From: a bacterium
GTDB lineage: Bacteria; Patescibacteriota; CPR2; UBA1875; JAJYID01
DNA length: 50,279 bases
Assembly: GCA_021790235.1 (NCBI GenBank)
Contig: JAJYID010000004.1
Span: 1-50,279, forward strand
Reading direction: 5' to 3'
The notes beneath the pieces are model-generated. The model did not search any database and was not told the DNA's origin. It saw nothing but the letters and a program-made list of their open reading frames with translations. Below, piece by piece: positions 2,365 through 43,275 of the stretch (positions are counted from its first letter, which is position 1; the number at the start of each line of letters is the position of its first letter). Made by a program: the position numbers and the translations under genes.

Positions 2365-2437
2365 GGGCCCTTGGCTCAGTTGGTAGAGCGCATCCATGGC
2401 ATGGATGAGGTCACCGGTTCGATCCCGGTAGGGTCCA
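2365..2437 (+). tRNA. tRNA-Ala (anticodon GGC), CCA not encoded
   Basis: Manual cloverleaf: acceptor GGGCCCT/AGGGTCC with G3:U70, D-arm GCTC-AGTTGGTA-GAGC, anticodon arm CATCC-ATGGCAT-GGATG, T-arm ACCGG-TTCGATC-CCGGT, discriminator A. Confidence 0.9.
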
Positions 2438-2539
2438 AATAAAACCAGTTGATAAAATGCCTTTCTATAGGCATTTTATTTTTTGAAAATCCCAAAATAT
2501 CGTAACACCATACCGAAGTTCGAACTTTTGTGCTCAAAG
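2417..2539 (+). repeat. Repeat module copy A: tRNA-Ala T-loop/3' end, terminator hairpin and about 55 nt of downstream conserved sequence
   Basis: Aligns by eye with 3823-3940 (one indel of about 10 nt) and partly with 5011-5081. Contains the 12-nt perfect palindrome AAGTTCGAACTT at 2516-2527. Confidence 0.8.
2454..2484 (+). terminator. rho-independent terminator of tRNA-Ala
   Basis: AAAATGCCT-ttctat-AGGCATTTT followed by a T-run. Confidence 0.75.
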
Positions 2540-2556
2540 CCCAGGCGGGCTTTTTT
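2536..2556 (+). terminator. second short hairpin with T-run
   Basis: AGCCC-aggc-GGGCT followed by TTTTTT. Confidence 0.5.
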
Positions 2557-2569
2557 AATATTTCAATGG

Positions 2570-2598
2570 TTGATAAACTGTAAGAACTATGGTACTAT
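2570..2598 (+). promoter_or_regulatory. sigma70-like promoter for the HD operon
   Basis: TTGATA, 17-nt spacer, TACTAT. Lies about 50 nt upstream of the ATG at 2651. Confidence 0.45.
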
Positions 2599-2650
2599 TA
2601 CACCTCAGTACCTTCTATTCTAATAACCCGATCTCACAAGGAGAGATATC

Positions 2651-3259
2651 ATGTCGCGCCAACTCGAAAGTGGTTCGAGCACAATGGTTCAAATGGCCGA
2701 GGGGCAGTTTGCTCTTCAGTTAGTATCAATGTCACAAGCTTTACAGGATCTCCTTCCCAAGCACTTACAAATTATGGGTAAGTGGGCTGACAGGATACTC
2801 GGTATGTATCCCGACGCCAATCCTGAAGTTGTAAAAGTTGCAGTTTGGTTTCATGATATAGGTTATGTGGACTGCGAGGATTACGACAGGGACGACCACG
2901 CGGTTTATTCTGAGGTAAGGGCTATCCAGTTCTTGCGAGCCAATGATTATTCTCAGAACAAACTGGAGCAGGTGGCCCATTGCGTCAGAGCACACCGGTG
3001 CAAAGACGTTCAGCCGGAAACCATCGAGGCGAAGATCATCGCCGTTGCTGATTCGGCTAGTCATTTGACTGACTATGCCTACATCAATCTCACTCAGCTA
3101 GGCATCAAGGATTATGCAATGGAAAAGCTTGAGCGTGACTACAGGGACGTTGGACTTTTGCCCGAGGTCAAGCAAGAGCTTTCACCGCTCTACGAAGCAT
3201 GGAAACAGCTACTACCGCAATTCCCCGATTGGAAAATCACAGACATGGAAGGAGCGTAA
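2651..3259 (+). CDS. HD-superfamily metal-dependent phosphohydrolase
   Basis: WFHDIGY (HD dyad), then downstream His/Asp positions (DHAVYS, VRAHR, AVADSASH). SD AAGGAG upstream. Confidence 0.7.
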   Translation: MSRQLESGSSTMVQMAEGQFALQLVSMSQALQDLLPKHLQIMGKWADRILGMYPDANPEVVKVAVWFHDIGYVDCEDYDRDDHAVYSEVRAIQFLRANDYSQNKLEQVAHCVRAHRCKDVQPETIEAKIIAVADSASHLTDYAYINLTQLGIKDYAMEKLERDYRDVGLLPEVKQELSPLYEAWKQLLPQFPDWKITDMEGA

Positions 3260-3262
3260 AAA

Positions 3263-3655
3263 ATGCCTGACGACAACACAGTTAATCATAATCGTAATCT
3301 TTGTGGCAGACCTGATGTGCCGAATGACACGCCCAGGGAAGTCGTAGAGCAGAATCCGGCGCATTGTCTCTGCTGTGGCAGTGAGATGTATATAGCGGAA
3401 CTTTCCAGTCTGGGAATGCAACAAGCCGGCATGTATCGGCTAGTATGTCCGGATTGCCCGGGTAGATGGCGAGAACTGAAGCCATGCATATCGATGGACA
3501 AGGACACCAGGATCTGTAAGGACCCTGGAAATGTCCTCGAAGTAGAGTGCGTCGTCTGGGATCCTGTGGAAAACGTCTTATGTGGGGGCTACCAGCCAGA
3601 CGAGTATGTGGCGGTTCAGCCGAATAAACCAAGATTTCACTCATCGAGGAGGTGA
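3263..3655 (+). CDS. Cys-rich hypothetical protein with zinc-ribbon-like CxxC...CxxC
   Basis: CLCCGSE...(21 aa)...CPDC plus further Cys residues. SD AAGGAG 8 nt upstream. Starts 3 nt after the HD gene stop. Confidence 0.6.
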   Translation: MPDDNTVNHNRNLCGRPDVPNDTPREVVEQNPAHCLCCGSEMYIAELSSLGMQQAGMYRLVCPDCPGRWRELKPCISMDKDTRICKDPGNVLEVECVVWDPVENVLCGGYQPDEYVAVQPNKPRFHSSRR

Positions 3656-3660
3656 TTTAG

Positions 3661-3699
3661 ATGTCCGGTGGCGGAAACGGTGGTGGTGGCGGCAAGTAG
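3661..3699 (+). CDS. 12-codon Gly-rich ORF (MSGGGNGGGGGK)
   Basis: ATG 3661 is preceded by GAGGAGGTGA at optimal spacing, and TAG is at 3697-3699. A terminator lies 35 nt downstream. Below the size cut-off of the ORF track. Coding status unproven. Confidence 0.35.
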   Translation: MSGGGNGGGGGK

Positions 3700-3732
3700 G
3701 CTGCTAATTACAAGCGACTCAAGAGTCTGGAA

Positions 3733-3757
3733 AGACGACTCAGCGAGTCGTTTTTCC
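3733..3757 (+). terminator. rho-independent terminator of the HD operon
   Basis: GACGACTC-agc-GAGTCGT followed by TTTTT. Confidence 0.7.
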
Positions 3758-3767
3758 TTTGTTTGCA

Positions 3768-3940
3768 GGGATTAAGCTACAATCTTATTTACTACTTTTT
3801 CCAGTTGATTTAGTATATTTAAGTTCGAATAGCTTCCGGTTAGGACCAAAATAAACCAGTTGATAAAATGCCTTATTTATAGGCATTTTATTTTTGAAAT
3901 AACGTAAACCCTAACCGAAGTTCGAACTTTCGTGCTCAAG
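3768..3940 (+). repeat. Repeat module copy B (degenerate tRNA 3'-end remnant, terminator and conserved tail)
   Basis: GTTCGAATAGCTTCCGGTTAGGACCAAA resembles the tRNA T-loop/acceptor with a 6-nt insertion. Same ACCAGTTGATAAAATGCC...GGCATTTT hairpin. Palindrome AAGTTCGAACTT at 3918-3929. The upstream 55 nt is shared with copy C. Confidence 0.8.
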
Positions 3941-3968
3941 AAGAGTAAATTAACATGAGGTAGAATTG

Positions 3969-3977
3969 TGATATAAT
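3969..3977 (+). promoter_or_regulatory. extended -10 element (TGaTATAAT) 6 nt before the ATG, implying a leaderless mRNA
   Basis: TGATATAAT at 3969-3977 and ATG at 3984. No SD. Confidence 0.45.
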
Positions 3978-3983
3978 CGACTC

Positions 3984-4946
3984 ATGAATGAAAGAATGGA
4001 ATCGATCAAATTTGATGACAAAAAGGGTTTAGAGAATTTAAAAGAAACAGATAATTTTTATCTTGATCCTGAGCTTCAGAAAGAGCTAAGGGACCTGACG
4101 GTTGGAGACCCCGAAGTTTTAAGAGAGAATTCATCAAGAATTCTTAGTAACTTAAAAGGCTTGCGTGAAAAAGACCAGAAATTAGGATCGAACTTTCAAC
4201 TAAGTATTAATGATGCTCGCGAATATACCAATATTTTAAGGCCATGCCATGAGACTTCAGGTCAAGTATTACTGCAAATATTAGAAGATGGCAAATTTTT
4301 GCCTCAATATGAGGTAGCCAAGCAATACCCTGGGATAAAAAGCAGGACAACCGAAACTGATAAGGGAATTAACTCTGATTTGTCTGTATTTTGTACCTTC
4401 GATCTTTTCAGAGGGTTTGGAGGCAACAATTACTCAGTAATTTTCAAAAAGGAAATACTAGAGAAGCCGAGCTCTTATTTTAGTTTCAATGATATTGCGG
4501 CATTAATCCCGAATTATGATACAGCAAGTAGTTATCAAAGTAAGAGATATTTAGATGAATACAGAAAACGAGTTATCCCCGGAAAAGATGCCCCTGAGGT
4601 TCTAGCCGAGATAGCAGCTACCTTTAAAAACCGATATGAAGATTTTCATTCACATGTTTCTTGGAGCGATGAAATTTTTGAAAAGATAGGAATCCCAAAA
4701 AGTTCAGCAGCAAAAGCAGCAGGGCATATAAGTGACAGACCCGAAATTCATCTCCTAAGCCCAACAGTTGATGACATTGAAGCAGTAGTTATCAATGACT
4801 GGAAAGAGAAAGATGAGGTAGTTGAGAAGGAAGTCTTAAAGAAACTCAAAAAACTTGGAATACCTTTTAAATACTGTAGTGATATCGACGTAGAGGGACA
4901 AAAACTTCCCGAGACGTTCTTCAAAGAATTGGAGAAGCAACAGTAA
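3984..4946 (+). CDS. hypothetical protein (320 aa)
   Basis: Long uninterrupted ORF with its own promoter, followed by repeat module C. No confident domain. See the finding on a weak H/Y/E pattern. Confidence 0.65.
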   Translation: MNERMESIKFDDKKGLENLKETDNFYLDPELQKELRDLTVGDPEVLRENSSRILSNLKGLREKDQKLGSNFQLSINDAREYTNILRPCHETSGQVLLQILEDGKFLPQYEVAKQYPGIKSRTTETDKGINSDLSVFCTFDLFRGFGGNNYSVIFKKEILEKPSSYFSFNDIAALIPNYDTASSYQSKRYLDEYRKRVIPGKDAPEVLAEIAATFKNRYEDFHSHVSWSDEIFEKIGIPKSSAAKAAGHISDRPEIHLLSPTVDDIEAVVINDWKEKDEVVEKEVLKKLKKLGIPFKYCSDIDVEGQKLPETFFKELEKQQ

Positions 4947-4951
4947 AACCA

Positions 4952-5081
4952 AGGGACTGCTTAAGCAACAAGCCTATTTACTACTTTTTCAAGCTGATTT
5001 AAGACCAAAAGGTTCGAATAGCTACCGGTAAGGTCCAAACTTAACCAGTTGATAAAATGCCTTAACATAGGCATTTTTTTT
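4952..5081 (+). repeat. Repeat module copy C (degenerate tRNA 3'-end remnant and terminator)
   Basis: GGTTCGAATAGCTACCGGTAAGGTCCAAA followed by the AACCAGTTGATAAAATGCC...GGCATTTTTTTT hairpin. The 27-nt core TATTTACTACTTTTTCAAGCTGATTTA (4975-5001) matches 3786-3812 with 2 mismatches. Confidence 0.75.
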
Positions 5082-5190
5082 AATGTCAAAAACTTGACAG
5101 TATAGGAGATTCGTACTTTTAAGAAAAAATGTGCTTTTTTAAAATGCCTGGCAAAGTTGACATAAATATTATCTGTAGTATTATTTAAAT

Positions 5191-5535
5191 ATGTTAATGG
5201 AAAAGATTATTGAACAGTTTTCTAAAATGAATATTATCCGGAGTACAATTTTTGTACAGAGTGCCGCTGGTTACTGTCTCATAGTACTGAACCAACGTGA
5301 GAAGATTAACAAAATAAAGATGTCAGCCCGAGTTCAACTTTTGGGTTGGATGAATAAATTTTTAGGTGAACTTGACCTCTTGAAACAAGCAGGTAAAATA
5401 AAACAACTTACAGAGTATAACCTCGTTGGTATTGCAACTTCATTCAATATTGTTCAAGACTATTGTTCAGACTATGACGTTTTGCCTCGTTTAGACGACA
5501 AGTCGTTACCTATAGATAAATTTGTTGAGCAATAA
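5191..5535 (+). CDS. hypothetical protein (114 aa)
   Basis: ORF preceded by TTGACA...TATTAT promoter-like hexamers (5156-5183). No motif recognised. Confidence 0.5.
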   Translation: MLMEKIIEQFSKMNIIRSTIFVQSAAGYCLIVLNQREKINKIKMSARVQLLGWMNKFLGELDLLKQAGKIKQLTEYNLVGIATSFNIVQDYCSDYDVLPRLDDKSLPIDKFVEQ

Positions 5536-5536
5536 C

Positions 5537-6274
5537 ATGTCCGAAACATGTTTCACAGCAGTAAGGTACGACGATGGTGAGAAACTTTTGGATGTGGCAA
5601 ATGAGTTTTTTAAAAAATATGATTTGTCCCTTGTCGAAGAAAGAATAGGAAACCGTCGGGGGAAATATGCAAGATCTCCCAAACACTATAAGGATCTAGA
5701 AGAATATTACGAAATTCAAGAAAAACAAAGACGAGGCAAAGAACTTTCTTGGACTACAAATTTTTTGTTTTTTGGGAACCCAAGTGATAATTCTGGGTGG
5801 AAAATATTTCTTTACAACGAACCAGTGAGCCCACTACATGGTGTGAAGACCAATGAAAATTTTTCCAAACATGTGTCCTCAAAACTGAATGCAAAATGTA
5901 TAGATTATTCATACTATAGCGTTGTCGATCAGCTGAGATTAAGATGTTTTAGGGACGGAAAATTAACTGACGAGTTGTGCTTCATGTTTGATAATGGAGT
6001 AGATTTTGCATCCGGATTTTTTAAAAAATTTGAAGGAACTAAGGGGACAATAAAGGATTCATGGACGAACGAGCGTTTTGAGGGTAAAGAGGCAGAAGCA
6101 ATCGAAGCAAAACACAAGGAAATCTGGCAAGCTCAATACGATTTTCTAGACAAGGAAGGATTTAACATAGAAAAAATACAATGGGGTTATGATAGTGAAA
6201 CAAACCGGCGGCCAATGTATTTAAAGGGTGGTCCAAGCGCAATACAAAAATTTTTTGCTTCTCAGGCCTTTTAA
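5537..6274 (+). CDS. hypothetical protein (about 245 aa)
   Basis: The ORF track starts at 5522 (TTG). The ATG at 5537 lies 1 nt after the upstream stop. No motif recognised. Confidence 0.55.
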   Translation: MSETCFTAVRYDDGEKLLDVANEFFKKYDLSLVEERIGNRRGKYARSPKHYKDLEEYYEIQEKQRRGKELSWTTNFLFFGNPSDNSGWKIFLYNEPVSPLHGVKTNENFSKHVSSKLNAKCIDYSYYSVVDQLRLRCFRDGKLTDELCFMFDNGVDFASGFFKKFEGTKGTIKDSWTNERFEGKEAEAIEAKHKEIWQAQYDFLDKEGFNIEKIQWGYDSETNRRPMYLKGGPSAIQKFFASQAF

Positions 6275-6519
6275 TCCTTAGTTTAAGCGATTTTGTTCAG
6301 AGATTCTTCCAGCTTATCCAACAGGCTCAAGTTCGCATACTGTACACTTATGACCGCCAGAAACCTAATTTTCTTAATTTTTCTTTGCTGGTGCACTTTT
6401 AATGGTAGTGTTTTTGTGTTATAATTGAGTTCAAAATAAACAGCGGAGGGAGCTTTCGGCTGTTTTTGTTTGGGTGTACATTGAAAATGACATAATCTCA
6501 AAATCTTATTGAAAGCGAG

Positions 6520-7560
6520 GTGAAAGACTTGAAGTATAAACCGATGGACATGGAAAAGTATAATAAGGCTAGAGAACTAAGGAGAAAACTCTGGGGACCA
6601 CAATCCATCGCTAATGAAATCCAAGTTGATGACAGCACTGTCATTAGATGGACTGCTGATATTGCTAAGGAAATATTCGAGAGACGAGTTGAACTAATGA
6701 GGCGGCTTGTCCTGGAGAAGAAATACACCAGGAAAGAAATTTGCGAGAGGTTGTGTATTGGCATGTCTACCCTTTATAAATATACCAATGATATAAGAGA
6801 GGAAAAAAGAGACTATGATTTCCTTGGAAGAGAGGTAGAAAGGTTATTTCTTGAAGGTGAATCAAAAGGGAAAATCAAGAAAAAACTGAATGTTTCCGAG
6901 AGTTTTATCAGGAAACATACAAAACCTCTACAGAAAGATCTCGTAAATGCTGAGCAAGGCGAATACCGAAATGAGCAGGGCGTTTTGTTTGTAGCTTGCA
7001 AGTATCTTGCTGAGTATCTGGATATGAATACTGCTTCTATTTATCCGTCCTTACGGGAGTATGAGGTTCCATACATAGAGCTACTGACATCTAATGAACG
7101 TGTGAGCAGTAATAACGGACGTTTAAAGTTCTATGAGTTCGATAAAGTGTTTGAACTTGTCCCGTCGCTCAAAGAAAGAAAAGGGCGTATAGATGATTTC
7201 AACAATTTATCTGAAAAGCATATTCTTAGGACTAAACCAGAAGATCTGACCGATGAGGAATTCAAGGTTTTATGGGCGCTTCTAGTCTGGAGGAATACAA
7301 AAGACTATTGGCCTCTTCCGGCAAACCTTACCAGCATGTTGAGGGGTATGAGTGCAAAAGACATTTCCCGATGTTTTGCCTCATTAGAGCTCAAACGGTA
7401 TATTACAATCATATACGAGCATAAGAATGCAAACAGTATGAGGAGAATAGTTGTTCACAAGGGTCCGCCGGAACTTATAACTCGGCAGGTCGAGTGTGCT
7501 CATTGTGAACACAAATTCTTTGTTTCCAGGGATTATGTCGAAAATGGGGCTGAGCCGTAG
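6520..7560 (+). CDS. multi-HTH DNA-binding protein with C-terminal CxxC
   Basis: Three successive helix-turn-helix-like segments (STVIRWTADIAKE, MSTLYKYTNDIRE, VSESFIRKHTK), a winged-helix-like region and CAHCEH near the C-terminus. Start is GTG 6520 or ATG 6544. Confidence 0.55.
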   Translation: MKDLKYKPMDMEKYNKARELRRKLWGPQSIANEIQVDDSTVIRWTADIAKEIFERRVELMRRLVLEKKYTRKEICERLCIGMSTLYKYTNDIREEKRDYDFLGREVERLFLEGESKGKIKKKLNVSESFIRKHTKPLQKDLVNAEQGEYRNEQGVLFVACKYLAEYLDMNTASIYPSLREYEVPYIELLTSNERVSSNNGRLKFYEFDKVFELVPSLKERKGRIDDFNNLSEKHILRTKPEDLTDEEFKVLWALLVWRNTKDYWPLPANLTSMLRGMSAKDISRCFASLELKRYITIIYEHKNANSMRRIVVHKGPPELITRQVECAHCEHKFFVSRDYVENGAEP

Positions 7561-7717: not shown

Positions 7718-7894
7718 ATGGTAGAAGACATGATTAACTCAATCGGTCCGGATGATGAAGAAGATGAAGAAATGACTGAAGAAGAAATGCCAGAAGAACA
7801 GAAAGGTGAAGAGAGCGAAGGTGAAGAGAACGAAGAAACTGAAGGAGACAATGAAGAAGTAGGTGATAATGAAGAGGAAGAAGAAACTGAGTAA
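7718..7894 (+). CDS. highly acidic small protein (58 aa, 32 Asp/Glu)
   Basis: AAGGAGGAGGA SD region, with ATG at 7718 (alternative 7730) and TAA at 7892-7894. A strong terminator follows. The Ser-rich ORF 7636..7851 on the minus strand is its antisense shadow. Confidence 0.6.
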   Translation: MVEDMINSIGPDDEEDEEMTEEEMPEEQKGEESEGEENEETEGDNEEVGDNEEEEETE

Positions 7895-7986: not shown

Positions 7987-8424
7987 ATGTGCTTTATGCA
8001 AATCACACTTAGAAATTATAAAGATTCGGACTTTGAAGCTGTCAAACAAAATATTGTTGATGGCGGCATTTTTGATCCCATTCGCGATACCAGGGAAAAT
8101 CTAAAGAAAAAGATTGAGTATGATTCGGAGTCTATTATTATTGCGGAGAAGAATGGAGAGTTGATCGGCAATGTTTTTTTCTTTGAGGATGGTTGGGCGG
8201 CTCACCTTTTCAGATTAGTGGTCAGAGAAGATTATCGCGGCAAGGGTGTGGCTCAATTGTTAATGCAAGAAGCTGAAAAAAGGTTGAGAGATAGGGGGAT
8301 AAAGCAGCAGATTATGTTTGTCAACGAAAAATCGCCTCACTTGATTGAACACTACAAAAAGCAAGGGTATAAAGCTATCGGGACGTACAGATTTATGAGA
8401 AAAGTATTTAATAGTGGAAATTAA
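7987..8424 (+). CDS. GNAT-family N-acetyltransferase
   Basis: Acetyl-CoA motif RGKGVAQLLMQEAEKRL and typical length. The start may be the ATG at 7996. Confidence 0.8.
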   Translation: MCFMQITLRNYKDSDFEAVKQNIVDGGIFDPIRDTRENLKKKIEYDSESIIIAEKNGELIGNVFFFEDGWAAHLFRLVVREDYRGKGVAQLLMQEAEKRLRDRGIKQQIMFVNEKSPHLIEHYKKQGYKAIGTYRFMRKVFNSGN

Positions 8425-8520: not shown

Positions 8521-8988
8521 TTAATCCCTTTCTTTTGTCCTTAGTTCTCTTTGAACATCGCGTTTGATGTCTTTTCTTTTGATAGTTTCTCGTTTGTCGT
8601 GCTTCTTTTTACCACGACCAAGGCCAATTTCAACTTTGACAAAGCCTCGTTTCAAGTAGACTTTGATCGGAATAAGCGTCAGACCTTGAGTTTTTGATTT
8701 ACCGATGAGGCTCGAAATTTCTGATTTTTTAAGCAGCAGTTTACGCGATCTGGTTGGCTCTTGGTTCACATTTGTCGCCTGTTTGTATGGCGAGATGTGG
8801 GCGTTAGTCAAAAACACTTCCTCGCCTTTGACGGTGGCAAATGCTTCCTTGATTGAAATCTGGCCCGCTTTCACTGACTTCACCTCCGGACCGGTCAGGA
8901 CGATGCCGGCCTCAAAAGTTTCCAGGATTTCGTAGTCAAATCGAGCTTTTTTATTCGTCGCTATCACTTTCATATTGGGCATATTCAT
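8521..8988 (-). CDS. smpB: SsrA-binding protein SmpB
   Basis: NKKARFDYEILETFEAGIVLTGPEVKS and a basic C-terminal tail. Several in-frame Met residues at the N-terminus, so the start is uncertain by up to 6 codons. Confidence 0.9.
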   Translation of the reverse strand: MNMPNMKVIATNKKARFDYEILETFEAGIVLTGPEVKSVKAGQISIKEAFATVKGEEVFLTNAHISPYKQATNVNQEPTRSRKLLLKKSEISSLIGKSKTQGLTLIPIKVYLKRGFVKVEIGLGRGKKKHDKRETIKRKDIKRDVQRELRTKERD

Positions 8989-9031: not shown

Positions 9032-9047
9032 TAGGTTTGTTTGTATA

Positions 9048-9072
9048 GATTCCGGATCAAGTCCGGAATGAC
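9048..9072 (-). repeat. short hairpin repeat, GTCAT family (GTCATTCCGGA-CTTGA-TCCGGAATC on the minus strand)
   Basis: 8-bp perfect stem with CTTGA loop. Its terminal GGAATGAC contains the likely argS ATG (9068). Confidence 0.75.
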
Positions 9073-10732
9073 AGAGGAAAAAATGCATGAGGAACTGAAA
9101 AAAGCTATTTATGAAGCTGTAAAAGCCCAACAAAAAGATTGCGGGTGCGACTTCTCTATTCCCGGAGTTGAGCTTGAACATCCGAAAGATATGCGATACG
9201 GCGATATCTCGACCAATGTTGCTATGAAAATTGGAAAATTGCAAAGGAAGGATCCGATGGCAATTGCTGAGAATTTGGTAAAACAATTGGATCCTGGTTT
9301 AGTCAGAATGACACAGAGGAGAATTGAGAAAGTCGAAGCTGTGAAGCCGGGATTTATTAACTTTTATTTCAGCAGTGATTATTACCAGAAAAAAGTTCAA
9401 GAAATCATATCTGCCGGTAAGAAATTTGCCGATTCAAATATTGGTGAAGGAAAGAAAACCCAAGTTGAGTTTTTGTCGGCCAATCCCACTGGTCCGGCGC
9501 ATCTCGGAAACGCGCGTGGTGGTTTCTATGGCGATGTACTGGCGAATACTTTTCAAAAATTCGGGTTTAAAGTCGAGAGAGAATATTACGTTAATGATGG
9601 TGGTGGGCAAGTCATAAAGCTTGCCAAGTCGATTTTGGCTGAGGCAGAAATTATTCCCGGGGATGAAAGGGTTTACAGCGGAGTTTATATAAAAAAGTGG
9701 GTTGATGAGAATCGGGCATTTATCGAGGAGAACAAAGACGATCAGCAAAAGATCGGCTACAAAGCCGCTTGGGATGTCATGAATGATTACATTAAACCCT
9801 CAATCGAAAAGATGCATATCAAGTTCGACGAGTTCTTCAGTGAAAAGACCTTGCTTGAAAGCGGGGCGGTAGAAAAAACAATTGACGAACTGAAAAAGAA
9901 AAAACTGACGTATAAAAAAGATCAGGCTCTGTGGCTTAAGACGACCGAATTTGGCGATGATCAGGATAGGGTGCTGGTAAAAAGCGATGGAATGTATGCC
10001 TATATCGCGCCCGACATCGCCTATCATTACAACAAGTTTGGCGAAAGAAAGTTTGATCATGTGGTTGATGTTTTCGGCACAGACCATCACGGTTATGTGA
10101 AAAGGCTTTTGACGGCGACAGCTGCTCTCGGCTATCCGGGTCAGCTCGATATTCGTTTATTGCAGCTGGTTCGTTTAATTCAAAAAGGCAAAGAGCTTAG
10201 GATGTCAAAACGCGCCGGCACTGCGGTTACTTTTGACGAACTTCTTGACTTAATCGGTACAAAAGATGCCTCTGATGTAGCAAGATTTTTCTTTCTTTCC
10301 CGCGACCTCGACACCCATATGGACTTTGATCTCGATCTGGCCAAAGACACCTCCGAGAAGAACCCGGTTTATTATGTGAAATATGCATCGGCCAGGATAA
10401 ATGGGATCTTGCGTAATGCGACTATTGATTATTCTAAACCAAATTTAGGGTTGATTAAAAAACCGGCCGAAATCGACCTCATTAAAAAATTGATTGAACT
10501 GCCAGAAATAGTTGAGCAGGTGGCAAGCGACAAGAAATATCCGGTTCACAAGTTTGCTTATTACATTACGGAAGTGGCTGAGAAATTCCACAAATTCTAT
10601 CATGATTACCGGGTTGTTTCCGACGATGCGGAACTAACCAAGGCCAGACTAGCGCTTGTTGCAGCCACAAAAAATGTTCTAGAAATCACCGGGGAAGACA
10701 TTCTCGGTATTAACATACCAGAGAGGATGTAA
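9068..10732 (+). CDS. argS: arginyl-tRNA synthetase
   Basis: ANPTGPAHLGNARGG (HIGH region), RMSKRAG (KMSKS-like) and the anticodon-binding C-terminus ending in ...RM. The ORF-track start at 9041 (TTG) reads through the repeat, so ATG 9068 or 9083 is preferred. Confidence 0.9.
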   Translation: MTEEKMHEELKKAIYEAVKAQQKDCGCDFSIPGVELEHPKDMRYGDISTNVAMKIGKLQRKDPMAIAENLVKQLDPGLVRMTQRRIEKVEAVKPGFINFYFSSDYYQKKVQEIISAGKKFADSNIGEGKKTQVEFLSANPTGPAHLGNARGGFYGDVLANTFQKFGFKVEREYYVNDGGGQVIKLAKSILAEAEIIPGDERVYSGVYIKKWVDENRAFIEENKDDQQKIGYKAAWDVMNDYIKPSIEKMHIKFDEFFSEKTLLESGAVEKTIDELKKKKLTYKKDQALWLKTTEFGDDQDRVLVKSDGMYAYIAPDIAYHYNKFGERKFDHVVDVFGTDHHGYVKRLLTATAALGYPGQLDIRLLQLVRLIQKGKELRMSKRAGTAVTFDELLDLIGTKDASDVARFFFLSRDLDTHMDFDLDLAKDTSEKNPVYYVKYASARINGILRNATIDYSKPNLGLIKKPAEIDLIKKLIELPEIVEQVASDKKYPVHKFAYYITEVAEKFHKFYHDYRVVSDDAELTKARLALVAATKNVLEITGEDILGINIPERM

Positions 10733-10906: not shown

Positions 10907-13237
10907 CTATTTAATCTCAAAACTTAGAACTTTGTTCTTTGTGGCGGCGTAGACAGTCTTTCCTGAGATAGTAGCGAAACGGATATCTGAGAAATCATCA
11001 GTGGTATATCTACCTTGATAAGATCCATTCTTACCGATAACGATGATGGATTTATCTAATGCGGATCCGACGATAATATCTTGTGTGGCAGTGTCAGTGT
11101 AGATAAAGCTGGCAGTGGTGAGATTGAGGGGTATATCTTTGATAGAGAAATCTTGTTTTTTGCCGGAAGTGAATTTGTCGATTTCTCCATTTTTGGTTAA
11201 AACATAGATGTCAGAATCAATTCTAAACGATATGGGATCCTGTATGTCTCCAGAATTTGACAGATATTCCGTTCCCTTGCCGTAACCGCTCGAAGTTCTA
11301 ATATGTTTATAAATCTGATCTTGAGTCAGCAGGTATAGACTTGTACCATATGAATCGATATCTATAGCCTTTTCCCAATTGCCTGAAGCACTTTTTTTAG
11401 TCACACTATTGTCACTTGTATCGAACTCGTAAACGGCTGGAGAATCAGTCAAAATTTCTATTGTTGCAATTTTGTCTAAGATCGCTGCACCAAGTACATT
11501 CCCCTCGATTTTCCCGTTATACTGAATGGTGGTGGCTTTTTTAGAGAGGATACCTACGCTTGAAATCTGGCCATTTTTTGAAATGACATATAAGGTATTT
11601 TTCAGTTTGTAAATGCCTACAATGTAAGTACTGCTTGTTTTAGAAAAATCTGCTAAAACTGATGGATTAATCTTAGTTGTGTCTGTGATTTTATTATATT
11701 CATCACTAATTTCTGTAAGCTTTTCTTTTGTTTGAACAACATAAAATTTACCGGTAATCAACTGATTTGCCAAAGCTCTAGCATCGATAAGATCCTGAGA
11801 TGCTTTTTGAAAATCGTTTTGGCCGGCCAGAGAATCGGCTTCTGAGATTTTTTGAATCATTGAATCGTATTTCGCTTTCTCAGCTTTTTTGAGTTTAGTA
11901 TCACCCTGACCAACTTTGGAAATTAAAAGATAACCGGCTAAGATTAAAAGAATTGCTACACCTATTGCCAAATAATGATTTTTTTTGAGATTGAGTTTTG
12001 GCAACTTTTTCTTATTATGTTTGAAGTTGGCCAGTTGAGTAGCAGAACCATAGAGTGAACCGAGATTGTTTAAAATAGTGCTTTTAGTTTTCTCAAATCT
12101 GGTTTTACTTGGTGCTTCGTCACTTTCTTTGATGTGGATTTCTGACTTATAAGCTGGGGTTTTAATCTTTTCTTCAATTTCCTTTGGTCCTTCTTTCCCC
12201 TGAGTTTCGTGAGTATCTTCAAACTCTTCAATCCCTGGGACTTTTTCTGTTTCAAAGCCTTCTATTTTTTCATCTGTTTCGGCTAAGACATTTGAAAAAA
12301 TACTTTCTTTTTTCTTAGCATGTTTTTCATAAACCTCACCTGACTTACCTTTTATAAGAGCAAAAAGTTCCTTGGATTTAGGCAACAAAGTATTTCCATA
12401 AAACTCAAACACTGTTAAAGAAACCAGTTTCAAATGTTTTAAAATTTTTGCTAATATATTAGTTGATTTTTCAGCTAGGATTTCTTTTTTCGTTGTGCCT
12501 TGCAGCCATATTTCTTCCGGTTCCTCATCCAGAGTTTCATTTGCCAGAGCTTCCGGTGTCATAAATTCTAAAATGATAGCGGCATTTTGTCCATAAGATC
12601 CGCCGACACCCTCGATTAATCCTGCCAAGTGATTGATAGCTATTTTGGGATGGTATTTGATTACGTATTTTGAAACTTCTTCAACTGAGCAAGATCTAAG
12701 AATTCCGGAGGAAAGAATAGAAATCCTGTCACCTTCAGCCAGTTCGCCGCTAGTAATATTTACAAAAGTTCGTAGTGGGTTAACGCTGTCACCGGCCAAG
12801 TCATCGGTAATATGGCTTTCTTTGTCACCTCTATAAAGATAAGCTTCGGCTTTACCAGTTTGAGTGATATGAATGGTATCATCGGCAAATACTGCTAATA
12901 TAGCATTGAGTCTACCCATCCAAAAGGTGTTGCCATTTGAAGTAAATTCACCCAATTCTTCATTAATCTTTGCCAGGGCATTTTCGAAACTTTCAAGCGG
13001 GTCTCTCTCTAACTCCTGATAATATTCACCATGGAAGGTATCAATAATGAGTTCTATCAGTTCTTCAGAACGTTTTGGGTTGCCATTGACATCAATTACG
13101 GCAAAAAGAATACCATGTCTTCGCTCGTCCGGATCATCGGGACGATGTTCGTAGGCAGTACAGATGTTGTTTGTTGATTTAAGTTTATGCGACTCGCTGG
13201 CGAGCCGGGCCGTCCGAAGGGCTAATTTTTTATTCAT
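10907..13237 (-). CDS. membrane protein: N-terminal degenerate PP2C-like domain, one TM helix and a C-terminal beta-propeller-like repeat region
   Basis: ILFAVIDVNGN and AEGDRISILSSGIL resemble PP2C motifs (FAVADGMGG, GDxLLLCSDGL), but the metal-binding Asp positions are substituted. TM segment YLAIGVAILLILAGYLLI. Repetitive beta-strand-like C-terminal half. Confidence 0.45.
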   Translation of the reverse strand: MNKKLALRTARLASESHKLKSTNNICTAYEHRPDDPDERRHGILFAVIDVNGNPKRSEELIELIIDTFHGEYYQELERDPLESFENALAKINEELGEFTSNGNTFWMGRLNAILAVFADDTIHITQTGKAEAYLYRGDKESHITDDLAGDSVNPLRTFVNITSGELAEGDRISILSSGILRSCSVEEVSKYVIKYHPKIAINHLAGLIEGVGGSYGQNAAIILEFMTPEALANETLDEEPEEIWLQGTTKKEILAEKSTNILAKILKHLKLVSLTVFEFYGNTLLPKSKELFALIKGKSGEVYEKHAKKKESIFSNVLAETDEKIEGFETEKVPGIEEFEDTHETQGKEGPKEIEEKIKTPAYKSEIHIKESDEAPSKTRFEKTKSTILNNLGSLYGSATQLANFKHNKKKLPKLNLKKNHYLAIGVAILLILAGYLLISKVGQGDTKLKKAEKAKYDSMIQKISEADSLAGQNDFQKASQDLIDARALANQLITGKFYVVQTKEKLTEISDEYNKITDTTKINPSVLADFSKTSSTYIVGIYKLKNTLYVISKNGQISSVGILSKKATTIQYNGKIEGNVLGAAILDKIATIEILTDSPAVYEFDTSDNSVTKKSASGNWEKAIDIDSYGTSLYLLTQDQIYKHIRTSSGYGKGTEYLSNSGDIQDPISFRIDSDIYVLTKNGEIDKFTSGKKQDFSIKDIPLNLTTASFIYTDTATQDIIVGSALDKSIIVIGKNGSYQGRYTTDDFSDIRFATISGKTVYAATKNKVLSFEIK

Positions 13238-20346: not shown

Positions 20347-21749
20347 GTGAAAAAAACTAAGATTATAGCCACTCTTGGGCCATCCTCGGATGACCCAAAA
20401 ATTATGGGAAAATTGATAGATGCGGGAGTCAATATCTTCCGTATCAATTTTTCGCATGCCACAGAAGAAGAAAGAGTTAAGAGGGTAAAAGATCTAAGAA
20501 CAATCGAGAAGACAAGCGGGAAACCGGTAACGATTTTACAGGATCTGCAAGGGCCAAAAATACGTGTCGGCAAGATCGACGGTTCTATTGAATTAACCGA
20601 AGGAAAAGAAATTACTCTCACTATAGATACACCGGCCCATGGCGAAGTTCCTGTCCAATATCAAGGTATAGTTAGCGACGTTGAGAGCGGAAACCGTATT
20701 CTTCTGGTTGATGGGAAAATCGTTCTTGAAGTTATTTCTAAAGACAAGAAAAGATTAAATGCAAAGTCAAAACTGGCGGTGTTTTAAGCTCAAATAAAGG
20801 GATTAACCTGCCGGACTCCAGCATTTCTCTGCCGGCCCTTTCCGAAAAAGATCTCCATGATTTAAAGTTTGGTCTGACTAATGATCTTGACTATGTGGCT
20901 CTTTCATTTGTCAAGTCAGCCGAGGATATTTTGCAACTTAAAAGCATAATCAAAAAAGCAGGGGGAAAGACCAAAGTGATCGCAAAAATCGAGCGTCACG
21001 AGGCAGTGAAAAACATTGATGAGATTATTGAGGCCGCAGATGCGGTTATGGTAGCAAGGGGCGATCTAGGGATCGAAGTTTCTCTGGCCAGTGTTCCGCT
21101 TCTTCAGAAAACGATTATTGAAAGATGTAATGCAGCCGGCAAGCCGGTGATAGTAGCAACCCAAATGTTAGATTCGATGGTGCGGAATCCTGTATCAACT
21201 AGGGCTGAGACATCCGATATCGCAAATGCTATTTTGGATGGGGCTGACGCAGTGATGCTTTCTGATGAAACATCTGTCGGCAAATATCCGATTAATGCAG
21301 TGAAAGTCATGTGCAAGATCGCTTTGACAGTTGAAAAATGGTCTAATGATAGCCAAATTATCATTGGGGAAGACGCAATTAAAAAAATTAATTCAACTTC
21401 AGAAGCAATAAGCAAAAGCGCCTGTAAACTGGCTTCGGAAATTAAAGCCAAAGTGATTATTAATGCAACGGCTCGGGGTAAGACAACTAAAAATGTTTCG
21501 AGATTTCGTCCGCATTGTCCGATAATTTCTGTGACCCACACTTTAAAAATCGCTCGGGAGCTAAATCTGGTTTGGGGAGTTTATCCGTATGTTCTGAAAT
21601 ACAAAACTGTTCGTGAGATGAGCAGACAATCTACGGAAATCGCTAGGGCCCTAAAACTCGTCAAGAAGGGAGACAAACTCGTGATAATCAGCGGTGAGAA
21701 AGTTGGCGTGGAAGGTGGCACTAACATGGTTAAAGTTAAGGAGCTTTAG
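20347..21749 (+). pseudogene. pyk: pyruvate kinase with its reading frame broken near 20740-20755
   Basis: The ORFs 20347..20787 (KIIATLGPSS, NFSHA) and 20895..21749 (MVARGDLGIE...) are the two parts of one pyk. In the -1 frame, 20748-20894 reads KKIKCKVKTGGVLSSNKGINLPDSSISLPALSEKDLHDLKFGL..., which bridges the two parts. Confidence 0.8.
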
Positions 21750-38441: not shown

Positions 38442-40952
38442 ATGACGTTTTTCATTACAGGAGGGATTTTTCTAATAGTTGCAATTGCAGCGGGGTTTAT
38501 CTATTTTTACAAAAAAACCAGTGCTTATAAAAAGCAAATAGAAAGATCATTAAAGATAGTACCCCTTTTGGTGCGGGTTCCTAGAGAGATGGGGTCAAAG
38601 GAAAAGGCAACTCAAAGTCGTGATGACAGGGATGTGGGAAGGGAAATTATCTCGTTTATGGAGACTTTCTATGCTAACCTTTCTGTGATTTATAAAAGAG
38701 GATTTAAGGACATTCACCATAATCTTCTTTATGGCCAAAGGCATATTGCGCTTGAGATAATTGCTAAAGATAAAGAGATTGCTTTCTATATTGGTGTGCC
38801 GATTACGCTTCTTGACATGGTTGAGAAAATGTTATCCTCTCAGTATCCGGAGTCAGTGATAGAAGAAGCCGAAGAACATAATATTTTTTCGAAGGATTGG
38901 CGGAAAATGGGCATATGCGGAGGGCAGTTAAAACTTTACAAGTCTTTTATTTATCCGCTGAAAACATATAAAACTATTGAAGCAGAACCTCTTGAGTCTA
39001 TCACTAATGTTTTCAGCAAGCTTGAAATCGGCGAAGGCGCGGCAGTCCAAGTTCTGATTCGTCCAGTCCATCCGCGGAAAATGCACAAAGGCAGAGCCCA
39101 TGTTCGAAAAACACAAAATCAGAAAAACAGCGACTGGATTACTGCAGTTACCGGTACGTTGATGGCGAAAGATAATAGTTCTCTCAGTCAAGAACCTGTA
39201 AGATTGACGGCTATGGAAGAAGAGGTAAATAAAGCAATCGAAGAAAAAGCAGGTAAAGCTCCATTTGAAACGGTTATTCGCTTTATAGTTTCAACTGGTA
39301 ACCTTCACCGTAGCGAGATGATCATAAATGAGTTAAATGGCGCTTTTGCCCAGTTCAACGATCAAAACCTCAATGGTTTCAGGTTTAGAAGAGAAACAAA
39401 TGTTGACAAACTGGTCACTGACTATATTTTTCGTTTCTTTGACCATAATATCTTTTCTTTAAAAAGGTTTTTTTTCGGAGGTTTGATAGGTTATAAAAAC
39501 ATTTTAAATTCTGAGGAATTGTCCGGTATTTTCCACCTTCCAAACTATCTTATTCAGTCGCCGGGTATTAAGTGGCTTCCGGCTAAAATGACTGAATTGC
39601 CAAATAATTTGTCCGAAGAAGGTACTTTTATCGGGCGGGCACAGTATCGCGGTGAAAAGAAAATCGTACGTTTGGGAGAAAAAGATAAACTGCGTCATAC
39701 TTACATTTTAGGACAAACCGGTACCGGTAAAACGACAGTCATGCTTGATATGATTGTTGATGATATTTGTCGTGGAGAAGGAGTGGCATACATCGATCCT
39801 CATGGTGACGCTATTGAGGATATTTTAGTTCGTATTCCCAAAGAAAGAGCTGAGGATGTGGTGATTTTTGATGCCGGTGACTTAGATCGACCGATTGGAC
39901 TGAATATATACGAAGCCGAAACGATAGATCAGAAAGACCTTATCATTAACGAAGCACTGCAAATGCTCTATAAAATCTATGATCCAAATAACACCGGACA
40001 GATTTTTGGTCCGCGATTTGACCATTGGTTTAGGAATGCTTCCCTGACACTGATGGCAGATCCGGAAGGCGGCACATTTATCGAGGTGCCGAAAGTACTG
40101 ACCGATGAAAGGTTTCTGGCTCATAAACTAAAATATGTCACCGATCCGGTGATCAGAAGCTTTTGGTTTGATGATTTCGGGAAATCCACAGCTCAAGTAA
40201 AGTCCGAGATGCTTAGTTATTTTTTGCCTAAGTTTGGCGCTTTTATGACAAACACTACTATGAGAAATATCATCGGCCAGCCAAAGTCATCTATTAATTT
40301 AAATGAGATTATGGATTCCGGGAAAATTCTTCTTATTAATCTTTCCAAAGGTAAAATTGGCGAGCTTAATATGAGGTTTCTAGGTATTTTGCTTGTTATT
40401 AAGATGCAGGTTGCGGCGATGTCTCGGGCCAGCATCCCAGAGAGTGAGAGAAGACAATTTACTCTTTATGTCGATGAGTTTCAAAATTTCCTCACCGAAT
40501 CATTCGCCCAAATTCTCTCAGAAGCCAGGAAATATAAGTTCAATCTTGTGGTCGGAAACCAGTTTATCGGCCAGCTGACGGATCAGATGAGAACGGCCAT
40601 TTTCGGTAACATTGGTACCATTCTTAGTTTTAGAGTCGGGCCGGAAGATGCGGAGTTTATGGCGAAACAGTTTGAGCCGGTTTTCAGTATCAACGATCTT
40701 TTAAATATCGAAAACGGTTTTGCCTTTATTCGACTGATGATTAATGGCTACCCGTCCAGACCATTTATTGTTAATCCGGTCTATCCACCGATAGGTGTGG
40801 TTGATAAAAAAGTGGAGGATGCTATCCGGCAGCTTTCCAGACTTAAATATGGTAAGCCTCGAGAGATTGTCGATAAGGAGATTATGGAACGATTAGCTAT
40901 TGGTTCAGCACTTGAGGCTAACGAAACTTTGCCGAGAGAGATGGATCTGTAG
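38442..40952 (+). CDS. VirD4/TraG/TraD-like (type IV coupling protein-like) membrane-anchored ATPase
   Basis: N-terminal TM helix. Walker A GQTGTGKT at about aa 425. Walker B LYVDEFQNF. The C-terminal region resembles the TraD/TraG family. Confidence 0.6.
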   Translation: MTFFITGGIFLIVAIAAGFIYFYKKTSAYKKQIERSLKIVPLLVRVPREMGSKEKATQSRDDRDVGREIISFMETFYANLSVIYKRGFKDIHHNLLYGQRHIALEIIAKDKEIAFYIGVPITLLDMVEKMLSSQYPESVIEEAEEHNIFSKDWRKMGICGGQLKLYKSFIYPLKTYKTIEAEPLESITNVFSKLEIGEGAAVQVLIRPVHPRKMHKGRAHVRKTQNQKNSDWITAVTGTLMAKDNSSLSQEPVRLTAMEEEVNKAIEEKAGKAPFETVIRFIVSTGNLHRSEMIINELNGAFAQFNDQNLNGFRFRRETNVDKLVTDYIFRFFDHNIFSLKRFFFGGLIGYKNILNSEELSGIFHLPNYLIQSPGIKWLPAKMTELPNNLSEEGTFIGRAQYRGEKKIVRLGEKDKLRHTYILGQTGTGKTTVMLDMIVDDICRGEGVAYIDPHGDAIEDILVRIPKERAEDVVIFDAGDLDRPIGLNIYEAETIDQKDLIINEALQMLYKIYDPNNTGQIFGPRFDHWFRNASLTLMADPEGGTFIEVPKVLTDERFLAHKLKYVTDPVIRSFWFDDFGKSTAQVKSEMLSYFLPKFGAFMTNTTMRNIIGQPKSSINLNEIMDSGKILLINLSKGKIGELNMRFLGILLVIKMQVAAMSRASIPESERRQFTLYVDEFQNFLTESFAQILSEARKYKFNLVVGNQFIGQLTDQMRTAIFGNIGTILSFRVGPEDAEFMAKQFEPVFSINDLLNIENGFAFIRLMINGYPSRPFIVNPVYPPIGVVDKKVEDAIRQLSRLKYGKPREIVDKEIMERLAIGSALEANETLPREMDL

Positions 40953-41160
40953 GTTACATAATTTTTTGTCCCCCTTTTGTTTTTTGGTTTAATTTGTGCT
41001 AAAATAGTGATAGCTCCAAAGGGGCAAAATTTTCAAAAAATCTCTCATTGATTCGGGGTGGTTGTAACTCACAAAAATACCTTGCGATAAGCAAAAAGAG
41101 GGATGTCCGAGATTAGGATATTAGTTTAAACTATGTTAATTTGAAAATTAATTTTGAATA

Positions 41161-43275
<2,115 letters not shown>

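Follow-up and report, generated by a model that had tools for sequence, protein, structure and literature searches.

Behind a tRNA-Ala(GGC) gene of a Patescibacteriota bacterium (lineage CPR2), within 50,279 nucleotides of contig JAJYID010000004.1 of assembly GCA_021790235.1 (the window, by which we mean this stretch in its full length), we found a tandem array of small gene cassettes whose junctions imitate the 3' end of the tRNA. The array most probably consists of three non-autonomous mini-cassettes (2438-3848, 3849-5037, and 5038-~6359), which would have been stacked by site-specific tandem accretion with a recombinase acting in trans. Three homologous modules lie behind the tRNA, starting at 2438, 3765, and 4956 (copies A, B, and C). 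They are made up of the following parts, where the P arm closes one cassette and the P' arm begins the next.

2365-2437, forward strand: live tRNA-Ala(GGC), 73 nt, ending at discriminator base A73 (ARAGORN; Rfam, 62.7 bits).
2438-2545, forward strand: P' arm of cassette 1 (nhmmer E 1.2e-32; alignment; inverted-repeat analysis; terminator scan).
2454-2477: hairpin AAAATGCC...GGCATTTT in the P' arm of cassette 1.
~2505-2537: inverted pseudo-tRNA-3' motif of the same arm, after the spacer, including the palindrome at 2516-2527.
2536-2553: second terminator hairpin of cassette 1 (terminator scan).
3765-3848, forward strand: P arm closing cassette 1 (nhmmer E 1.9e-20), with TTAAGC..TATTTACTACTTTTTCCAGTTGATTTA..GTTCGAATAGCTTCCGGTTAGGACCA; crossover after 3848.
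3849-3941, forward strand: P' arm of cassette 2 (nhmmer E 7e-24), with hairpin, inverted pseudo-tRNA motif, and palindrome at 3918-3929; its spacer is 10 nt shorter.
4956-5037, forward strand: P arm closing cassette 2 (nhmmer E 6e-23; alignment); crossover after 5037.
5038-5119, forward strand: degenerate P' arm of cassette 3 (nhmmer E 7.5e-8; alignment), with its hairpin at 5054-5077 intact.
6283-6359, forward strand: probable, diverged terminal P arm, ending in ...GTTCGCATACTGTACACTTATGACCGCCA (nhmmer E 0.11 alone).

The repeat search and the alignment revealed a 57-nt core common to all three copies at 72-86% identity; copies B and C have 104 nt in common at 83%, and copies A and B 43 nt at 86%. 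Profiles of the P arm and the P' arm, built from 13 and 12 family members and run on the 50-kb window with nhmmer, detected no further significant module copy there. An earlier note on this DNA had reported three copies of the tRNA-Ala 3' end. Their similarity is indeed far beyond chance by repeat search, alignment, and profiles (to E 1e-32), and it is not confined to the short hairpin. Two further details of that note were found as described, namely the additional bases of the T-loop remnant (TTCGAATAGCT versus TTCGATC) and the 27-nt core shared by copies B and C, while the extents that it gave were too short: copy B begins at ~3765, and copy C spans 4956-5119. Copy C, which had been taken for a merely shorter copy, is a full junction with a decayed right arm; its distal P' arm is deleted or diverged, with ATTCGTACTTTTAAG where AAGTTCGAACTTTTGTG is expected. 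The stretch at 6283-6359 begins 9 nt past the stop codon of a 250-aa open reading frame (ORF), aligns in register with four other P arms, and is nearest to the Saccharibacteria-type P arm of another locus (L018). To judge from this sequence likeness, it is probably a diverged P arm that closes cassette 3, an assignment in which our confidence is low to moderate. The cassettes are thus bounded by direct repeats of the attL/attR type, with P arms that end in GGNCCA at 3848, 5037, and probably 6359.

We then considered the junctions as a family, aligning 13 of them from the window and from related loci (given L numbers below). In this alignment the homology breaks at a single fixed point, right after GGNCCA, which corresponds to the tRNA discriminator base (position 73). 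Three kinds of sequence stand to the left of the break: genuine tRNAs, tRNA-like sites of 21 nt, and P arms. To the right there are P' arms or, alternatively, CCA and then native DNA that is unrelated. The P arm (consensus TTAAGCAACAAGCCTATTTACTACTTTTTCnAGCTGATTTA, ~9 nt, GTTCGAATAGCTACCGGTnAGGnCCA) is a mimic of the tRNA T-loop and acceptor strand that carries a 7-nt insertion. The P' arm starts with AA, 3 nt, AACCAGTTGATAAAATGCC, a loop, GGCATTTT, and a spacer, after which come ATATCGTAACACCnnACCGAAGTTCGAACTTTyGTGCTCAA and, often, a second terminator. Copy A is composed of tRNA and P' arm, and copies B and C of P arm and P' arm. Copies A and B are alike on the right side because both have P' arms there, and copies B and C are alike on the left side because both have P arms, a pattern of sharing that is expected of a tandem of related elements. 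The modules, which had been read as copies of a tRNA end with its terminator, are therefore attP-like composite junctions in which the end of one cassette meets the start of the next. Nor is the hairpin the tRNA's own terminator: it is carried by the elements, since it recurs after tRNA-Lys, tRNA-Met, and non-tRNA sites, and the native terminators differ. Terminal P arms are followed by CCA and native DNA in L006, L012, and L021. A reverse-strand ORF of 53 to 58 aa that runs across some of the junctions was rejected as a gene; it is missing in copy B, and the copies differ by 1- and 10-nt indels.

Comparison with related genomes, which the earlier note had suggested, supports the insertion of these units at the tRNA. 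The closest relative found, L016 (GCA_021787535.1), has a PrmC that is 76% identical and shares ~80% nucleotide identity with the window across transfer-messenger RNA (tmRNA), PrmC, the GGDEF gene, and tRNA-Ala; the similarity ends exactly at 2437. The tRNA-Ala(GGC) of L016 has 76 nt with an encoded CCA and is directly followed by tRNA-Phe, tRNA-Gly, tRNA-Cys, and tRNA-Leu. The site is equally free of modules in L036, L037, and L039, whose tRNA-Ala(GGC) encodes CCA; counting L016, it is unoccupied in four relatives. In the window, tRNA-Ala(GGC) is whole to 2437 and lacks an encoded CCA, and element DNA follows from 2438; the tRNA forms the left half of attB, with the crossover directly after 2437. 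An intact tRNA at the insertion was also found in L012 (tRNA-Ala) and, for a sister family of modules, in L007 (tRNA-Lys).

The same tRNA is occupied differently in L012 (PrmC 62% identical), where the orthologous tRNA-Ala lacks CCA and is followed by four other cassettes, containing two ORFs without assigned function, a GDSL hydrolase, a nucleoside-deoxyribosyltransferase-like ORF (below threshold) together with a dCMP deaminase, and small ORFs. The last part of that array is a terminal P arm, ...GGACCACCA, beyond which lies native DNA that encodes a glycosyltransferase and leucyl-tRNA synthetase. The terminal P arm with its CCA implies that the encoded CCA of L012 has been displaced to the far end of the array, as predicted by insertion between A73 and C74. 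A contig from a sister sample, L014, stops exactly at the tRNA end, which is consistent with population heterogeneity and is no proof of it. The accretion of integrase-less units at the tRNA 3' end, as first proposed from the window, is supported by the empty sites, by the differing cassettes, and by modules around unrelated cargo elsewhere. Local tandem duplication is rejected in view of the empty sites and of the occurrence of these modules at unrelated loci.

Several side observations concern the tRNA genes of these relatives. The tRNA-Ala(GGC) gene is inverted with respect to PrmC and the GGDEF gene in L035 (11598-11624), whose contig ends inside it, and in L037 (11023-11098), and the tRNA therefore also marks a rearrangement point. 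In L034, tRNA-Ala(GGC) matches the window tRNA in three pieces (11007-11025, 11062-11085, and 11148-11177) and may be interrupted or rearranged. At 12639-12860 of L016, the last 23 nt of a tRNA-Leu(TAA) (TTCGAGTCCCGCCTCGGGCACCA) are repeated ~110 nt beyond the gene, which may be the scar or a minimal insert of another tRNA-targeting element.

The same junctions recur at other loci around other genes. In L006, a cassette with a PsbP-like gene is bounded on the left by a 21-nt tRNA-like site behind a DUF192 gene and on the right by a terminal P arm with CCA. L021 has two cassettes between topA and a sigma70_r4 gene, one encoding a YdjC-family protein and the other a 161-aa ORF without a Pfam match, and L008 is an array fragment in which a cassette with an AIR-synthase-like gene is flanked by two full junctions. 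The modules of the sister family are ~65-75% identical, with an acceptor mimic that ends in ...GCCGATTACGCCCACCA; L007 has them at a live tRNA-Lys(UUU), and L003 and L004 have them behind topA. A Saccharibacteria metagenome-assembled genome (MAG), L018, has a family-like P arm and hairpin with no recognisable distal P' arm, and in L028 a tRNA-Met(CAT) is followed by no more than the hairpin and a portion of the P' spacer. Module families or fragments thus adjoin at least three different tRNAs. It is worth mentioning that the arrays of two genomes (L003, 1416-5970; L021, 1-380) have topA on one side and a sigma70_r4/HARE-HTH gene on the other. Next to come in L003 is a TrwB-like (DUF8128) ATPase, which is 33% identical to the window protein at 38442-40952, 33 kb from the array.

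Beyond these loci, the P' arm pattern had no match in 185,579 GTDB species representatives, and the hairpin pattern had 16 matches there, of which 13 are due to chance in unrelated taxa. Scans of viral contigs gave only chance matches inside coding sequence (L010 and L033 were inspected, L011 was not), and the junction sequence had no match in GenBank phages or PLSDB plasmids. For the candidate phyla radiation, Patescibacteria, or Saccharibacteria, a full-text search of a limited literature collection returned no description of a system of this kind.

The cargo of the window array comprises the following features.

2546-3764, forward strand: cargo of cassette 1, with promoter at 2570-2598 and terminator at 3729-3757.
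2651-3259, forward strand: HD-domain phosphohydrolase of cassette 1 (Pfam HD, E 1e-8).
3263-3655, forward strand: Cys-rich 130-aa ORF of cassette 1.
3942-4955, forward strand: cargo of cassette 2, with promoter at 3950-3977 (11/12 consensus positions).
3984-4946, forward strand: 320-aa ORF of cassette 2, function not assigned.
5120-6282, forward strand: cargo of cassette 3, with promoter at 5157-5184 (11/12 consensus positions).
5191-5535, forward strand: 114-aa ORF of cassette 3, function not assigned.
5522-6274, forward strand: 250-aa ORF of cassette 3, function not assigned.

Each unit has its own strong promoter-like site and terminator-like hairpins, in agreement with what had been noted from the sequence. 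The same plan holds across the family: ~13 distinct cassettes of 0.7-1.5 kb were counted at seven or more loci, nearly all of their ORFs share the orientation of the anchor, most cassettes have one to three genes, a terminator, and a promoter-like site just inside the P' arm, and the last ORF usually ends within ~110 nt of the P arm. Apart from the cassette-2 gene, the cargo is mutually unrelated, while the modules are 80-93% identical. Some cassettes have a GC content foreign to the host, 48-49% in hosts of ~40%; in the window, the cargo of cassette 1 has 48.4% GC versus 40.4% for the window. The annotated cargo is enzymatic, much of it related to nucleotides and carbohydrates (HD hydrolase, dCMP deaminase, AIR-synthase-like protein, YdjC, and GDSL hydrolase); the match to nucleoside deoxyribosyltransferase is weak and below threshold. 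For the cassette-2 protein, 5.8 billion proteins yielded just two homologues, both with family modules at their flanks: one of 90% identity in L005, between the same arms, and one of 55% amino-acid identity within sister-family arms at a topA locus. This recurrence at another locus, the unrelated cargo between conserved modules, and the foreign GC content of some cassettes speak for movement of the cassettes. The structure model of the cassette-2 protein was unusable (pLDDT 35). The libraries of defence systems, phages, and NCBI families gave nothing informative for the cassette proteins. Cassette 3 was considered as a homologue of the first L012 cassette (cassette a), and this was rejected despite similar ORF sizes. 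Between promoter and start codon, two unrelated cassettes, at 480-525 of L008 and 8607-8650 (reverse strand) of L007, have in common a 5' leader hairpin, GGAGGGCTTT..CAGACTCC, which may be a common regulatory or processing signal.

The uniformity of these units bears on the question of whether they are ordinary decayed islands, i.e., former integrase-bearing islands or prophages reduced to attL and attR, as in a strict definition of cis-mobilizable elements (CIMEs). Tandem integrations with partial tRNAs and remnants are documented (bioRxiv 10.1101/2020.12.28.424599; PMC5704250), and both copy C and the terminal P arm of the window show decay. Yet all ~13 cassettes are compact, and none contains an integrase, an integrase fragment, or a phage or conjugation gene; independent decay is not expected to give uniform units with 200-bp ends conserved at 80-93% around unrelated cargo. 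We therefore regard decay from such islands as an unlikely origin. The earlier note had left a choice between decayed or satellite islets mobilised in trans and cassette accretion by an undescribed mechanism. Mobilisation in trans fits best, decay does not agree with ~13 compact cassettes lacking any integrase remnant, and the mechanism may or may not be an undescribed one. Our findings point to a dedicated cassette system and not to the debris of old islands, because the same tRNA-mimic junctions surround ~13 cassettes at several sites, at least three different tRNAs have module families or fragments beside them, the annotated cargo is enzymatic, and no recombinase is found in any cassette. 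We rate two features as setting this array above an ordinary decayed island, namely the tidy, recombinase-free design throughout the family and the inverted copy of the tRNA mimic that matches the target.

The search for a recombinase covered the window and the array regions. Among the 33 longest non-nested ORFs of the window (120 aa or more), Pfam detected no domain of a recombinase or transposase, and the same holds for window ORFs of 104, 114, and 58 aa; nine shorter ORFs nested in or overlapping scanned genes were left out of the scan. The previous statement that no recombinase gene lies between 2438 and ~8400 holds for the scanned ORFs there and for those of the entire window. Around the related arrays, L028 excepted, no integrase, resolvase catalytic domain, or transposase (Pfam) was found in any cassette or in the scanned ORFs, so that an integrase encoded by the element itself is seen neither in the cassettes nor in the scanned ORFs of the window and the related array regions. 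The only recombinase seen near any module is an IS110-family DEDD transposase at 2767-3792 (reverse strand) of L028, 2.3 kb from the tRNA-Met(CAT) junction (GCA_021796415.1, the same MAG as L037), and its position may be coincidental. An orphan multi-helix-turn-helix protein of 346 aa (6520-7560), which adjoins the window array and has its own promoter, is unsupported as a recombinase: it gave helix-turn-helix (HTH) matches only, 5.8 billion proteins include no homologue of it, and it shows no relationship to the sigma70_r4/HARE-HTH gene after the L003 and L021 arrays. The structure model of this protein was unusable as well (pLDDT 38).

Since no recombinase was found in the cassettes, the array, or the scanned ORFs of the 50-kb window, the enzyme would work in trans, encoded at another place in the genome or by a helper element. 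In the mechanism that we propose, the free cassette would be a circle with a single attP of ~200 bp, composed of the P arm (ending in GGNCCA), the crossover, and the P' arm. The recombinase would recognise the tRNA-3'-like motif in both attB and attP and exchange strands just after A73. The attB would be a tRNA 3' end or its 21-nt look-alike, and insertion would take place between A73 and the encoded CCA, so that the live tRNA would lose its CCA, and CCA with the native DNA would move to the far end. Each internal junction joins a cassette's closing P arm to the P' arm that opens its successor, and the array would grow by repeated insertion at the tRNA or at any internal junction; cassettes of this kind may be mobile at present. 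The incoming P' hairpin would become the new terminator for the tRNA or the preceding cassette, and the cassette's own predicted promoter would drive the cargo. From the size of attP and its arm structure we infer a tyrosine-type integrase with accessory sites, which would recognise the tRNA-3'-like motif once in attB and twice, in inverted orientation, in attP.

The second, inverted occurrence of this motif includes the 12-nt palindrome AAGTTCGAACTT, which had been proposed as a protein-binding site. It occurs in exactly two copies in the window (2516-2527 and 3918-3929), as had been noted, where ~0.35 matches are expected by chance and 3 of 100 shuffles gave 2. The palindrome is not a conserved unit as such, but the middle of a more extended pseudo-copy of the tRNA 3' end in inverted orientation; the part around it that is conserved throughout the family is TTCGAACTTTyGTGCTCA. 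On its other strand, the P' arm reads GTTCGAAC-TT-CGGTAwGGTG, a near copy of the tRNA-Ala 3' end, GTTCGATC-C-CGGTAGGGTC, that lies in inverted orientation 62-92 nt right of the crossover. In the Lys-type family, the inverted copy is GTTCGAATGCCGAAAT, which matches the GCCGA acceptor mimic of that family. The inverted motif, with CGGTAwGG in the Ala family and GCCGA in the Lys family, therefore changes together with the target. No such inverted repeat was found at terminal junctions or empty sites. As single-stranded DNA, junction B has a fold far more stable than that of shuffled sequence (z = -4.5), in which AAGTTCGAA..CTTCCGGTTAGG of the P arm is paired to CCTAACCGAAGTTCGAACTT of the P' arm, with the 7-nt insertion bulging out. 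The complementarity is confined to 3-21 nt on the left of the crossover, without extending across it. The inverted motif may represent a pair of inverted binding sites for one protein or a folded or RNA-mediated recognition step; the data would fit either.

The fold raises the question of a non-classical mechanism, in which an attC-like single-stranded structure, or a guide RNA of the cassette, steers an unlinked recombinase (e.g., of the IS110-type DEDD class). We consider such a mechanism very improbable, although several features speak for it: the stable fold, in which P arm or tRNA end pairs with the inverted P' motif around the bulge; the variation of that motif with the target; the presence of a segment between two terminator-like hairpins; the IS110-family transposase near the L028 junction; and the very short identity at the crossover. 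In IS110/bridge-RNA elements, the DEDD transposase is inside the element, and the loops of a noncoding RNA match target and donor across the core. No DEDD_Tnp_IS110 domain was found in the window or the other arrays, no IntI or other candidate was found there either, and the complementarity does not extend across the crossover, unlike that of bridge-RNA guides. Moreover, the sites are conserved in sequence and not in structure alone, unlike attC sites, and inverted protein-binding sites account for the same data.

Homologous recombination offers another account of how cassettes are exchanged. In this case, the modules would serve as portable homology arms and transcriptional insulators for RecA-dependent shuffling after DNA uptake, and site-specific recombination would be limited to the founding of an array. 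The modules are long and 80-93% identical between arrays and genomes, no recombinase is nearby, and L008 and L012 have a common start resembling cassette d and different upstream cassettes. On the other hand, the arrays of L006 and L021 start at sites that have only ~21 nt in common with the modules, sister-family arrays begin at different tRNAs, and the breakpoints are exact to the nucleotide; the target mimic and its target-matched inverted copy also point to a recombination site. Shuffling of this kind is, in our view, quite unlikely to be the principal explanation.

Site-specific accretion with a recombinase in trans remains the reading that we prefer, and several points weigh against it. 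No recombinase for the array was found in the scan, which covered the window and the array regions. At the crossover, attB and attP are identical over only ~4-6 nt; so short a stretch is unusual for tyrosine integrases that target tRNAs, and serine or other enzymes are therefore possible. The independence of the related loci is limited by the small number of environments sampled (JGI Ga0172368-71, two ENA assemblies, and Logan runs), and the short Logan contigs end inside repeats without overlap of their ends. In the window itself, the P' arm of copy C is decayed and the right end of the array is weak and diverged (E 0.11); the window array may therefore be at least partly fossil.

Known systems share parts of this design. 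[quoted passage not shown] Those of ICESt1/ICESt3 in Streptococcus resemble our array in their att flanks, in their tandem stacks at the 3' end of a target gene, and in chimeric internal att sites (PMC5704250). They lie beside an ICE that supplies the integrase in cis, whereas the present arrays consist of uniform mini-cassettes of 0.7-1.5 kb without an ICE, IME, or integrase in any of them, in a host from an ultra-small uncultured lineage. The att ends without integration and transfer genes agree with CIMEs; an origin by decay of an ICE or IME does not, as no ICE, IME, integrase remnant, or conjugation gene adjoins the examined arrays. Tycheposons of Prochlorococcus integrate at tRNAs, and successive integrations push older elements inward and leave partial tRNAs between them; by definition they have their own tyrosine or serine recombinase, they often have replication genes, and they extend over several kb (bioRxiv 10.1101/2020.12.28.424599). 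Cargo integrated at tRNAs, tandem arrays, and streamlined genomes with few classical mobile elements are common to both. Our cassettes differ in having neither recombinase nor replication genes, and a composite att of ~200 bp with an inverted tRNA-like motif is not described for tycheposons. The ssrA-specific islands of Dehalococcoides integrate site-specifically at the 3' end of tmRNA by a genus-wide mechanism (PMC3146451). They are alike in using the 3' end of a small-RNA gene and differ in being large islands, compared with recombinase-free cassettes below 1.5 kb here.

Two further systems place the recombinase outside the mobile unit. The cassettes described here and those of integrons both form an ordered array of small, unrelated units with one to three genes, mostly in one orientation, with a site at the cassette end that has internal inverted symmetry. 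Integrons consist of intI with an adjacent attI and cassette promoter (Pc), followed by promoterless cassettes that end in attC sites defined by their folded structure. In our arrays there is no adjacent intI, attI, or Pc, the region upstream containing PrmC, the GGDEF protein, and the tRNA; the anchor is a tRNA gene or its look-alike; most cassettes have a predicted promoter; and the sites, although they contain an inverted repeat, are ~200 bp long, imitate the tRNA end, and are conserved in sequence at 80-93%. Integrative mobile elements exploiting Xer (IMEX), as in the CTX/TLC arrays of Vibrio cholerae, are integrase-less and use the host XerCD at dif. They too stand in tandem at one chromosomal site with the recombinase encoded elsewhere, whereas the target here is a tRNA 3' end and not dif, and no Xer-type sites were recognised. 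By analogy, the array appears to resemble tandem site-specific accretion in the way it works and an integron array in the way it is organised.

The genomes of candidate-phyla-radiation bacteria are tiny, and how these organisms acquire genes is poorly understood. A bolder reading, which we put forward as tentative, is that the arrays represent an integron-like capture platform in Patescibacteria-like bacteria, where small cassettes, mostly with their own predicted promoter and each with a tRNA-mimicking site of ~200 bp (target mimic and inverted copy), would be inserted, stacked, and exchanged at the 3' ends of tRNAs and at tRNA-like pseudo-sites by an unlinked, possibly unusual or nucleic-acid-guided recombinase. 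If true, this would be a general route of gene flux for ultra-small genomes that otherwise have few mobile elements. Finding the trans-acting enzyme would define a new platform for cassette capture, and a compact, programmable recombination site might result, since the target mimic appears to change with the target tRNA.

The genes around the array are arranged as follows.

Left of PrmC: 3' part of tmRNA.
744-1616: PrmC, upstream of tRNA-Ala(GGC).
1633-2325: GGDEF protein, between PrmC and tRNA-Ala(GGC).
7987-8424: GNAT acetyltransferase, beyond the array, followed by SmpB (reverse strand) and ArgS.

Among named sequences, those nearest to the window PrmC come from MAGs of candidate division WS5 and of Patescibacteria. 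The window and L012 each have a GNAT gene, and the two proved not to be orthologous. An extremely acidic ORF of 58 aa (7718-7894) with its own promoter also adjoins the array. Elsewhere in the window, pyruvate kinase is present as two ORFs (20347-20787 and 20895-21749) with a gap of ~100 nt, which could reflect a frameshift, a pseudogene, or an intervening sequence. Finally, a 35-nt repeat (89% identity) with the hairpin TTCCGGATCAAnTCCGGAA is found at 9040-9074 and 41153-41187, just upstream of ArgS and GyrB, and may be a regulatory element common to both.

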